Of a stretch of DNA of 64,000 nt, positions 41,935 to 43,952 are shown one piece after another. Location of the stretch: the sequence record PZ386951.1. One strand, 5' to 3'. Both the position numbers and the translations under genes were made by a program. Position 1 is the stretch's first letter. The number at the start of each line of letters is the position of its first letter. The notes under the pieces are model-generated. The model did no database searches, was not told where the DNA came from, and was given only the letters and a program-made list of their open reading frames with translations. This DNA is from a phage.

Positions 41935-42270
41935 TAAAAAGCCCCAACCTTTCGGTCGGGGCTAAGCCTTGCGGCAACCTTGTCGGGGTTCCACCTGCTA
42001 AGGCAAGTGTTTGTACGAAACGCCGGGATTCGAACCCGGTTATTAAGTAGTTGACGCTACTCAATATTTTTAAAAGGCCATATCTCGACCATATCCGAAC
42101 GTTCCGTCAAAAACGCTACTCGGCTTACGGCAAAGATATTTCCTCGAATCGATAATTCGGTGCGCCGTTTCTGCTGTGATGTAAGGGGGCATTAACCGAT
42201 CGTAAAGATTTGTTAATGCCAGTCCTTACCCAGGGAACATCAGTCCGACGACTTACCGGTAGCGACCCGG
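41935..42270 (-). ncRNA. structured non-coding region downstream of tRNA-Arg; candidate small stable RNAs (T4 species 1/2 analogs)
   Basis: No credible ORF; tRNA-like T-arm CCGGGTTCGAATCCCGG around 42022-42040; long perfect hairpins near 42143-42157 and 42187-42219. Confidence 0.3.
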
Positions 42271-42279
42271 TTTCTTGTT

Positions 42280-42537: not shown

Positions 42538-42612
42538 TGGTGGCCCTGGGTGGAATTGAACCACCATCTGGCGATTATGAGTCGCTTGCTTGAACCTTCC
42601 AGCTACAGGGCC
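42538..42612 (-). tRNA. tRNA with CAU anticodon (Ile2 lysidine-type, as in T4, or Met)
   Basis: Hand-folded: acceptor GGCCCTG/CAGGGCC, anticodon loop CTCATAA, T-loop TTCAATT, encoded CCA. Confidence 0.7.
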
Positions 42613-42621
42613 AAATTTTTC

Positions 42622-43107
42622 TTATTTTATGTAATATTTATTTAAAAACTTTCTAGCTTGAGTGTGGCTAACATTTATAGCATTTGCATAATTTTTAATA
42701 AAACCTCGTTCATCCATATTAAAATTTTCTAATATTTTTAATCGTCTAGTTATCTCATCTTGACTTAAAGTACTTGCATTATTTTTAGAAATTTTTTCTA
42801 AGGACTGAACTGAGTGTTTTCGACCACTAAAATTAAAATTTTTAGATTTTGGAGGAAATCTATCATTTAGTCTGGCATCTTTTGTATTTTGATTATTGGT
42901 TGCGCAATATATGTTATTTAATGAATACGGTCCTTTATCACCAAAACGACACATGCAGTATTCATGACCCTTTCTTCCACGCTTATCATAATTTCCCGTT
43001 GATTTCCACCAATGCAACCACTCATCAAAAGTTAAATTCCATTCAATGTTTCTACGTATAGCAGAATTCCGCTGAGAAATATATTTTGCATAATCTTCTT
43101 TCATCAC
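42622..43107 (-). CDS. putative HNH-like homing endonuclease embedded in the tRNA cluster
   Basis: 161 aa; HEYCMCRFGDKGPYSLNNIYCATNNQN resembles a degenerate HNH/His-Me finger; C-terminal helix-turn-helix-like segment; sits between the two tRNA subclusters. Confidence 0.45.
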   Translation of the reverse strand: MMKEDYAKYISQRNSAIRRNIEWNLTFDEWLHWWKSTGNYDKRGRKGHEYCMCRFGDKGPYSLNNIYCATNNQNTKDARLNDRFPPKSKNFNFSGRKHSVQSLEKISKNNASTLSQDEITRRLKILENFNMDERGFIKNYANAINVSHTQARKFLNKYYIK

Positions 43108-43151
43108 AAATTTCTCTACTTATTACATACACTAAGCTAAATCAGCAAAAC

Positions 43152-43241
43152 TGGCGGAGGCGATAGGATTTGAACCTATGAGTCGCCGGAGCGACTGCCG
43201 GTTTTCAAGACCGGTGCATTAAACCACTCTGCCACGCCTCC
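43152..43241 (-). tRNA. tRNA-Ser (anticodon UGA), class II
   Basis: Hand-folded: acceptor GGAGGCG/CGCCTCC, anticodon loop CTTGAAA, long variable arm, T-loop TTCAAAT, encoded CCA. Confidence 0.8.
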
Positions 43242-43664: not shown

Positions 43665-43952
43665 TTACCATTTATGATAATACATATTTACGATGCATTC
43701 AAGACCCAAAGGATTCTTGAAAATATCATATTCAAGAGGACCTTTTTCCGTTTCAATAAAGAAATCAAAGTTAACTGTATTAAATTTACGGTCTTCCTTC
43801 ACTAATTTAACTTGAGAAGATGAACGGTCAATGTAAACCTTTTCAACTTCAAAACATGTTAAAACGCCATAATCATCAATCAAGGCTTTAGCCGCGTCTT
43901 GATCATATTTATATCCATTTTCAATGGACGATACTTTAGCATAAAGAATCAT
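43665..43952 (-). CDS. hypothetical protein
   Basis: 95-aa ORF between tRNA cluster and the ipI-position gene. Confidence 0.4.
   Translation of the reverse strand: MILYAKVSSIENGYKYDQDAAKALIDDYGVLTCFEVEKVYIDRSSSQVKLVKEDRKFNTVNFDFFIETEKGPLEYDIFKNPLGLECIVNMYYHKW

Follow-up and report, generated by a model that had tools for sequence, protein, structure and literature searches.

The open reading frame that interrupts the tRNA cluster of the analysed phage DNA (sequence record PZ386951.1; the whole stretch of 64,000 nucleotides is called here the window) is best read as a homing-endonuclease-type gene, in which a histidine-less and zinc-less head of the PacI type is joined to a SegB-type tail, a variant that is barely characterised so far. 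According to our analysis it is probably a free-standing selfish gene of the T-even tRNA cluster encoding a putative nuclease, and it is an ortholog of the T2L gene trna.1 (AJ880101), with 96% identity over residues 32-161. The window comes from a Tequatrovirus and carries the tRNA cluster of a T2-like phage. The ORF and its parts are placed as follows.

42622..43107, minus strand: the ORF, 161 aa, with a GTG start at 43107; intact ortholog of T2L trna.1
42868..43095, minus strand: N-terminal PacI-type His-Me finger domain, residues 5-80, two helices and then beta-beta-alpha
42868..42960, minus strand: beta-beta-alpha core, residues 50-80, YCMCRFGDKGPYSLNNIYCATNNQNTKDARL
42946-42948, minus strand: R54
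42925-42927, minus strand: Y61
42913-42915, minus strand: N65
42886-42888, minus strand: N74
42784..42831, minus strand: NUMOD3-like motif, residues 93-108, FSGRKHSVQSLEKISK
42634..42762, minus strand: C-terminal three-helix HTH-like module, residues 116-158, predicted to bind DNA and homologous to the RB18-type SegB tail

Judging by its sequence, the ORF is a real gene under purifying selection and no chance reading frame, because pN/pS is as low as 0.05 against the Ec_MI-02 copy (15 synonymous and 3 nonsynonymous differences) and 0.11 against the in-frame part of the T2 copy, the ORF matches a PHROGs group of unknown function (phrog_16521, E=1e-54), and the family of its head domain counts 7,263 cluster representatives at E<=1e-3 in a profile search (5,253 at E<=1e-10, clusters being defined at 50% identity). 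An ORF 100% identical to it is present in phage REP1. The true start is more likely the ATG at 43104, which gives 160 aa, than the GTG at 43107: the ATG directly follows the GTG, and an ATG start is also found in the homolog P0001 and in the Ec_MI-02 annotation (160 aa). One GenBank record labels the ORF "putative site-specific homing DNA endonuclease". Scans of the ORF with Pfam, NCBIfam and PADLOC gave nothing meaningful, and a DotZ match at E=0.02 was treated as noise.

An earlier, sequence-only reading of this DNA had placed the 161-aa ORF between two tRNA subclusters, and this is confirmed by ARAGORN and Rfam, which agree on nine tRNAs, all on the minus strand and split 5+4 by the ORF. 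The surroundings are the following.

43567-43152, minus strand: upstream tRNAs Gln, Leu, Gly, Pro and Ser (ARAGORN, Rfam)
42612-42280, minus strand: downstream tRNAs Met(CAU), Tyr, Asn and Arg (ARAGORN, Rfam)
43152..43241, minus strand: tRNA-Ser(UGA), upstream flank of the insertion
42538..42612, minus strand: tRNA-Met(CAU), downstream flank; tRNA-Ile in the T4 annotation
43131..43146, minus strand: 16-nt 5' stub of tRNA-Thr, GCTGATTTAGCTTAGT, 15/16 identical to the intact tRNA-Thr of ESh28
43674..43702, minus strand: sigma-70-like promoter upstream of tRNA-Gln, a consensus match only
41940..41963, minus strand: strong terminator-like hairpin downstream of the tRNA cluster

The ORF occupies the 539-nt gap between tRNA-Ser and tRNA-Met, and its stop codon lies 9 nt ahead of the latter. 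When the gap is compared across relatives, as had been proposed from the sequence, the phages without the ORF prove to carry tRNA-Thr in this slot. The clearest case is ESh28, whose flanks are 99.6% identical to the window and where tRNA-Thr stands between tRNA-Ser and tRNA-Met; in the window the remaining ~60 nt of tRNA-Thr, beyond the stub, are replaced by the ORF. MAFFT had also suggested an anticodon-arm similarity, and hence a further piece of tRNA-Thr, under the ORF start; it was no better than shuffles (p=0.21) and was dismissed. The T4 annotation gives the order Gln-Leu-Gly-Pro-Ser-Thr-Ile-[segB]-Arg, with Thr after Ser and segB after Ile; therefore the slot of the ORF is that of T4 tRNA-Thr, and the earlier suggestion that it shares the site of T4 segB, which lies between Ile and Arg, has to be given up. 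With its nine tRNAs the window phage is missing tRNA-Thr(UGU), unlike T4 and ESh28-type relatives, and therefore carriage of the ORF costs the phage one tRNA species.

The ORF is predicted to be a part of the tRNA precursor transcript and to have no promoter of its own, since no internal promoter was found within the cluster, the promoter-like site before tRNA-Gln is the sole candidate upstream of the ORF, the terminator-like hairpin follows the cluster, and no RBS-occluding hairpin of the kind proposed for segB is significant at the ORF (z=+1.06). The hairpin at 41940..41963 is the probable end of this transcription unit. The T4 gene segB has likewise been described as embedded in the tRNA transcript (PMC2330249). 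As a separate observation, T2L trna.2 (AJ880101; 351 nt, just after tRNA-Arg, present also in RB18 and OE5505) is apparently absent from the window, where ~316 nt (41964-42279) lie between tRNA-Arg and the hairpin with no trna.2-sized ORF listed; Rfam gave no match in this interval for the species I/II RNAs, which are expected there by analogy with T4 and T2L.

The head of the ORF is a beta-beta-alpha His-Me finger of the PacI type, histidine-less and zinc-less. In the alignment of homologs the head (residues ~5-85) is the conserved part and the tails are variable, and the motif R-x2-D-x-G-x-Y-x3-N-x8-N is present in 163/163 collected proteins; W30, W34, R54, D57, G59, Y61, N65 and N74 are invariant among 168 sampled domains. 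At the end of strand 1, the usual position of the catalytic His, all 168 of these domains have Arg54, and the preceding position 53 is Cys in 49%, Ala in 39% and Ser in 8% of them. The AF2 model (pLDDT 87.3 for the full length; 92.9 and pTM 0.80 for the domain alone) arranges the head as helix-helix-strand(50-54)-strand(66-70)-helix(71-80), that is, with the beta-hairpin and subsequent alpha-helix of a His-Me core. Invariant Tyr61 sits in the loop between the strands, at +7 from the Arg, as Y100 does in PacI, and invariant Asn74, aligned with PacI N113, is placed by the model on the core helix as a predicted metal ligand. None of the Pfam and NCBIfam models describes this head: HNH PF01844, HNH_3 PF13392 and Endonuclease_7 do not match the ORF at E<=10, nor the head in 16 + 7 + 10 relatives, and no His-Me model of NCBIfam matches the ORF. 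The head family, with its >7,000 clusters, is yet without a Pfam or NCBIfam model.

The similarity to PacI is distant when taken directly. Against the single PacI sequence the ORF family aligns in the expected register at E=0.27, and against a 10-sequence PacI profile hhalign gives E=4.8e-4 (prob 32%) over 67 collinear columns; when the significance of the direct score was estimated by column shuffling, the observed 26.5 was reached in 0/300 shuffles, with a null of 12.0 +/- 2.7. A search with the broadened PacI profile added one bacterial homolog and none in viral contigs, and HMMER profile searches against PDB sequences found no relative of the ORF. A weak PHROG match of the ORF, together with Foldseek matches to 'anti-sigma factor/Srd' proteins, pointed to T4 Srd. 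The ORF family aligns with the N-domain profile of Srd at E=3.3e-9 (hhalign, 96%) and Srd aligns with PacI at E=5.6e-6 (86%), and at the level of sequence profiles the link between the ORF and PacI becomes firm through this bridge. R54, Y61, N65 and N74 of the ORF correspond to R93, Y100, N104 and N113 of PacI and to R65, Y72, N76 and N85 of Srd. In the literature searched, neither trna.1 nor Srd is connected with PacI or HNH.

PacI, the top structural match (PDB 3ldy/3m7k), has the same beta-beta-alpha core after two helices, collinear over ~67-74 residues, and the Arg at the catalytic-His position, the Tyr at +7, the Asn at +11 and the helix Asn at +20 are invariant in both families. It has no catalytic His; the Tyr of the omega loop takes over this role, and the metal is held by one Asp and one Asn (PMC5714182, PMC4081073, PMC3384342); the roles of its residues are taken here from reviews and from our alignment. 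PacI forms group 20 of the His-Me fingers in the classification of Jablonska et al. (2017) and has no Pfam model (PMC5714182); the ORF family likewise lacks a Pfam model. The differences are considerable: sequence identity is ~15%, and the two Cys4 zinc sites of PacI with its 18-residue CxxC insertion are absent from the ORF family, in which the residues at C109/C112 are not Cys. D92 of PacI, the presumed metal ligand directly before the Arg, is likewise missing; the ORF family has an invariant Asp at +3 instead, and this Asp57 might compensate for the absent one. Finally, PacI is a stand-alone homodimeric restriction enzyme with an 8 bp site, whereas the ORF is a phage mobile-element gene with a NUMOD3+HTH tail.

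The same comparison brings out that the N-terminal ~85 residues of T4 Srd are themselves a PacI-like His-Me finger (NC_000866 11039-11785, minus strand; L011:3040-3786). R65, G71, Y72, N76 and N85 are invariant in the Srd family, and Srd (NP_049634, 'anti-sigma factor / decoy of sigma70') thus shares with the ORF a homologous head, the R-G-Y-N-N signature and the standing of a T-even accessory protein. Unlike the ORF, it has retained an acidic residue ahead of the Arg as well as C-x-Y-S-G, a vestige of the PacI zinc knuckle, and its C-terminal ~160 residues are unrelated to the NUMOD3/HTH tail. The ORF is sporadic; Srd is encoded by a conserved early gene whose locus does not change (1,328 records). 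Srd stimulates RNase E, and its reported role is in RNA decay, not in DNA cleavage.

The tail of the ORF looks borrowed from SegB-like endonucleases. Its C-terminal three-helix module bears out the HTH-like segment seen in the sequence-only reading, and the tail is 33% identical to the RB18-type SegB tail (E=9e-16), with no detectable similarity to the SegB of T4 itself (E=1.2); more generally, it is homologous to the DNA-binding regions of SegB and I-TevI type. Pfam, proposed earlier as a way of identifying the protein, has no match for the ORF itself; PF07460 matches the aligned NUMOD3 motif in the orthologs P0002 and P0003 and in RB18 SegB, reaching the Pfam threshold in P0002. The whole therefore has the modular architecture of homing endonucleases, a nuclease-type head followed by NUMOD/HTH modules. 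That the putative endonuclease belongs to a family other than the GIY-YIG of segB, as was proposed before, agrees with the His-Me head and with the lack of a PF01541 match in the ORF, whereas RB18 SegB matches this model at E=6e-6; the tail alone is common to both. RB18-type SegB resembles the ORF in its residence in the same cluster, flanking tRNA-Ser as the ORF does, in its embedding in the tRNA transcript, in its sporadic distribution and in the NUMOD3+HTH tail. It differs by the GIY-YIG head, by the slot (Gly|Ser for RB18 segB and Ile|Arg for T4 segB, against Ser|Met, in place of Thr, for the ORF) and by the fact that its cleavage and homing have been shown experimentally, those of the ORF being putative. 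Taken as a whole, the earlier call of an HNH-like and HTH protein was broadly right, except that its motif relied on a His48 and cysteines which are unconserved and that segB lies in a different slot.

The distribution of the ORF is that of a mobile element. Among the 948 phage records that match the tRNA region of the window it is present in 26, as a defined insertion occurring sporadically among otherwise near-identical genomes. Full-length orthologs (38-61% identity) in Jiaodavirus, Gelderlandvirus and Biquartavirus always reside in tRNA clusters, with different tRNA neighbours. An independent polymorphism is seen in Aeromonas phages, with three allelic states between flanks 96-99% identical: L9-6 has Asn-Tyr-Lys and is empty, phage 31 has Asn-[homolog]-Tyr, and 44RR2.8t (L027:929-1483) has a T5orf172/MUG113-domain gene one slot further on. 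The last gene was rejected as a homolog of the ORF in view of its T5orf172 domain; in Aeromonas phages, selfish nucleases of different families are rivals for one and the same tRNA cluster. Outside the tRNA clusters, distant relatives are small free-standing genes beside those for RecA, for the clamp loader, DNA polymerase and dUTPase, and for the major capsid protein. Some of the metagenomic relatives (P0016, P0017, P0022, P0061) have 2-4 tandem copies of the head with intact signatures, a hint that two heads may act together on DNA as a dimer, and in P0061 the head is fused to a canonical Endonuclease VII domain (PF02945, E=1e-13).

Two further observations concern other carriers. OE5505 (NC_054926, L018:1200-1808), which also has the ORF, possesses a 202-aa annotated HNH gene at the place where tRNA-Gln normally starts the cluster; this gene has a weak match to PF01844 (E=0.005, below the Pfam cut-off) and weak HTH matches, and it provides a second instance in which an endonuclease gene has taken the place of a tRNA gene. 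In Salmonella phage vB_SenM-AKM_NP4 the Gelderlandvirus ortholog (L008:1995-2559), as annotated, extends at its 3' end ~10 nt into the following tRNA-Arg. Processing of the 5' end of this tRNA would then sever the message inside the coding region or right at its end, much as in the control of expression that has been suggested for T4 segB.

The T2 copy deserves separate attention. Brok-Volchanskaya et al. (2008) described trna.1 as an ORF of unknown function excluded by T4 SegB in crosses (PMC2330249). When the T2 copy (LC348380, L005:1500-1982) is aligned with 42622-43107 of the window, two 2-bp deletions are seen in its first 31 codons, after codon ~8 and after codon ~31, and the annotated 133-aa T2 protein is therefore a remnant of a frameshifted gene. 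The deletions are shared by 9/9 T2, T2L and SV76 records, which are 4 nt shorter here. By its sequence, then, T2/T2L trna.1 is a pseudogene with a disrupted head domain, and the window holds the intact form. Since all T2, T2L and SV76 copies are frameshifted, an intact copy has never been put to the test in the published crosses (T4 x T2L).

From the information discussed above the following mechanism can be proposed. Low-level translation of the ORF from the precursor of the tRNAs would yield a protein whose tail docks on DNA in or near the tRNA genes of a co-infecting relative without the ORF, most likely at the tRNA-Thr region, which is absent from the genome of the ORF itself. The head may then cut the DNA with one Mg2+ held by Asn74, possibly together with Asp57; Tyr61 would serve as the base or nucleophile, the role suggested for Tyr100 of PacI, and Arg54 would stabilise the phosphate. 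In the recombinational repair that follows, with the ORF-bearing genome as the template, the ORF and the neighbouring tRNA genes would be copied into the recipient and tRNA-Thr displaced.

It would be logical to ask whether the finger is still catalytic. As a dead His-Me finger, comparable to the Smad MH1 domain, the product would be only a sequence-specific DNA-binding protein, which would regulate the tRNA region or be a former endonuclease, domesticated or in decay, and we consider this rather unlikely. It would fit a head without the catalytic His, without an Asp at the position of PacI D92 and without zinc sites, as well as the lack of any reported activity of trna.1, and His-Me fingers that lost catalysis and kept DNA binding are documented (PMC5714182). 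Set against it is the complete invariance of R54, D57, G59, Y61, N65 and N74 in 168 domains, an active-site-like pattern that coincides with the catalytic Tyr and helix Asn of PacI; the groups classed as inactive have neither His nor Tyr (PMC5714182), whereas this head has the Tyr by which catalysis is rescued in PacI. The sporadic, site-hopping distribution and the frameshift decay in T2 are, moreover, hallmarks of selfish nuclease genes, not of regulators. Less probable still is that the ORF encodes a host-takeover or RNA-directed factor akin to Srd, whose head contacts a protein such as RNase E, or RNA, and which perhaps acts in processing of the tRNA precursor or in countering tRNA-targeting defences. 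The homology of the head to the Srd N-domain and the action of Srd on RNase E speak for it, as does the location within a tRNA operon; SegB, encoded in the same cluster, has recently been tied to anti-defence tRNA amplification. The long C-terminal region of Srd has, however, no counterpart in the ORF, whose tail comes from a DNA homing endonuclease; the fusion partners in the family are DNA-binding HTHs and Endonuclease VII, most relatives are found away from tRNAs, and PADLOC gave no match for the ORF.

A classical HNH homing endonuclease like I-HmuI or Mob, His-dependent and stabilised by zinc through His48 and Cys, we regard as highly improbable. The peptide quoted in the sequence-only reading, HEYCMCRFGDKGPYSLNNIYCATNNQN, is indeed present at residues 48-74 and has H, C-x-C, N and N in a roughly HNH-like order, and there is a weak match to phrog_3118 'HNH endonuclease' (E=0.02), limited to residues 7-37. 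This reading is contradicted by the conservation within the family, as His48 is unconserved and precedes strand 1, conservation of the Cys residues reaches no more than 49-60%, with Val or Ala often in their place, and every member has Arg at the catalytic-His position; PF01844, HNH_3 and other His-Me models of Pfam and NCBIfam give no match. The degenerate HNH-like motif has turned out, by the profile chain and AF2, to mark a true His-Me finger, of the PacI type, with His48 and the cysteines not among its conserved residues. I-HmuI with HNH_3-type and Mob-type HNH proteins does share with the ORF an N-terminal beta-beta-alpha head followed by NUMOD/HTH modules, and a similar H/R...N...N spacing in which the last motif residue is Asn and not His, but these proteins have a catalytic Asp-His pair and match Pfam HNH/HNH_3, while the ORF family has Cys/Ala-Arg there and no model.

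Two other groups should be compared with the homing-endonuclease-type gene proposed here. The free-standing 'PacI-like' HNH genes of Skunavirus also have PacI as the best remote match, are variably present and are presumed homing endonucleases (PMC12724721). They are likened to PacI by the HHpred label only, which applies to 2/268 genes, and belong to the morphogenesis module of phages of a lactococcal host with no tRNA association, unlike the ORF; for the single gene tested, no exclusion of phage was reported (PMC12724721). Hef of phage U5 is, similarly, a T-even free-standing endonuclease originally outside any family and has NUMOD/HTH modules. Its catalytic domain is C-terminal, Vsr-like and PD-(D/E)xK-related, with an EDxHD motif (PMC3239194), whereas the beta-beta-alpha head of the ORF is N-terminal and has no such motif; for this reason a Hef/EDxHD identity of the ORF was rejected.

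We may suggest, more tentatively, as a view that we hold for plausible rather than probable, that the head family as a whole (>7,000 clusters) is a very large class of phage nucleases, histidine-less, zinc-less and tyrosine-based within the beta-beta-alpha fold, and in effect a distinct class of homing endonucleases. The ORF would then be a member specialised for tRNA clusters by a head swap on a SegB-type tail, and T4 Srd a domesticated member, which may retain the nuclease chemistry.

The gene T2 trna.1, listed as of "unknown function" since 2008, now has an assigned fold and a testable function, and its laboratory copy in T2 is shown to be a pseudogene while intact copies circulate. The T-even tRNA cluster emerges as a hotspot at which at least four types of endonuclease head (GIY-YIG SegB, classical HNH, T5orf172 and the PacI type) displace single tRNA genes and exchange DNA-binding tails, which is relevant to the recent work tying SegB to tRNA-based anti-defence. 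Our analysis also flags a very large unmodelled phage family that is linked to T4 Srd and in which the invariant residues agree with those of the unusual, Tyr-dependent active site of PacI. Should this family prove active, the range of catalysis known among homing endonucleases would be widened, and compact new scaffolds for site-specific nucleases would become available.
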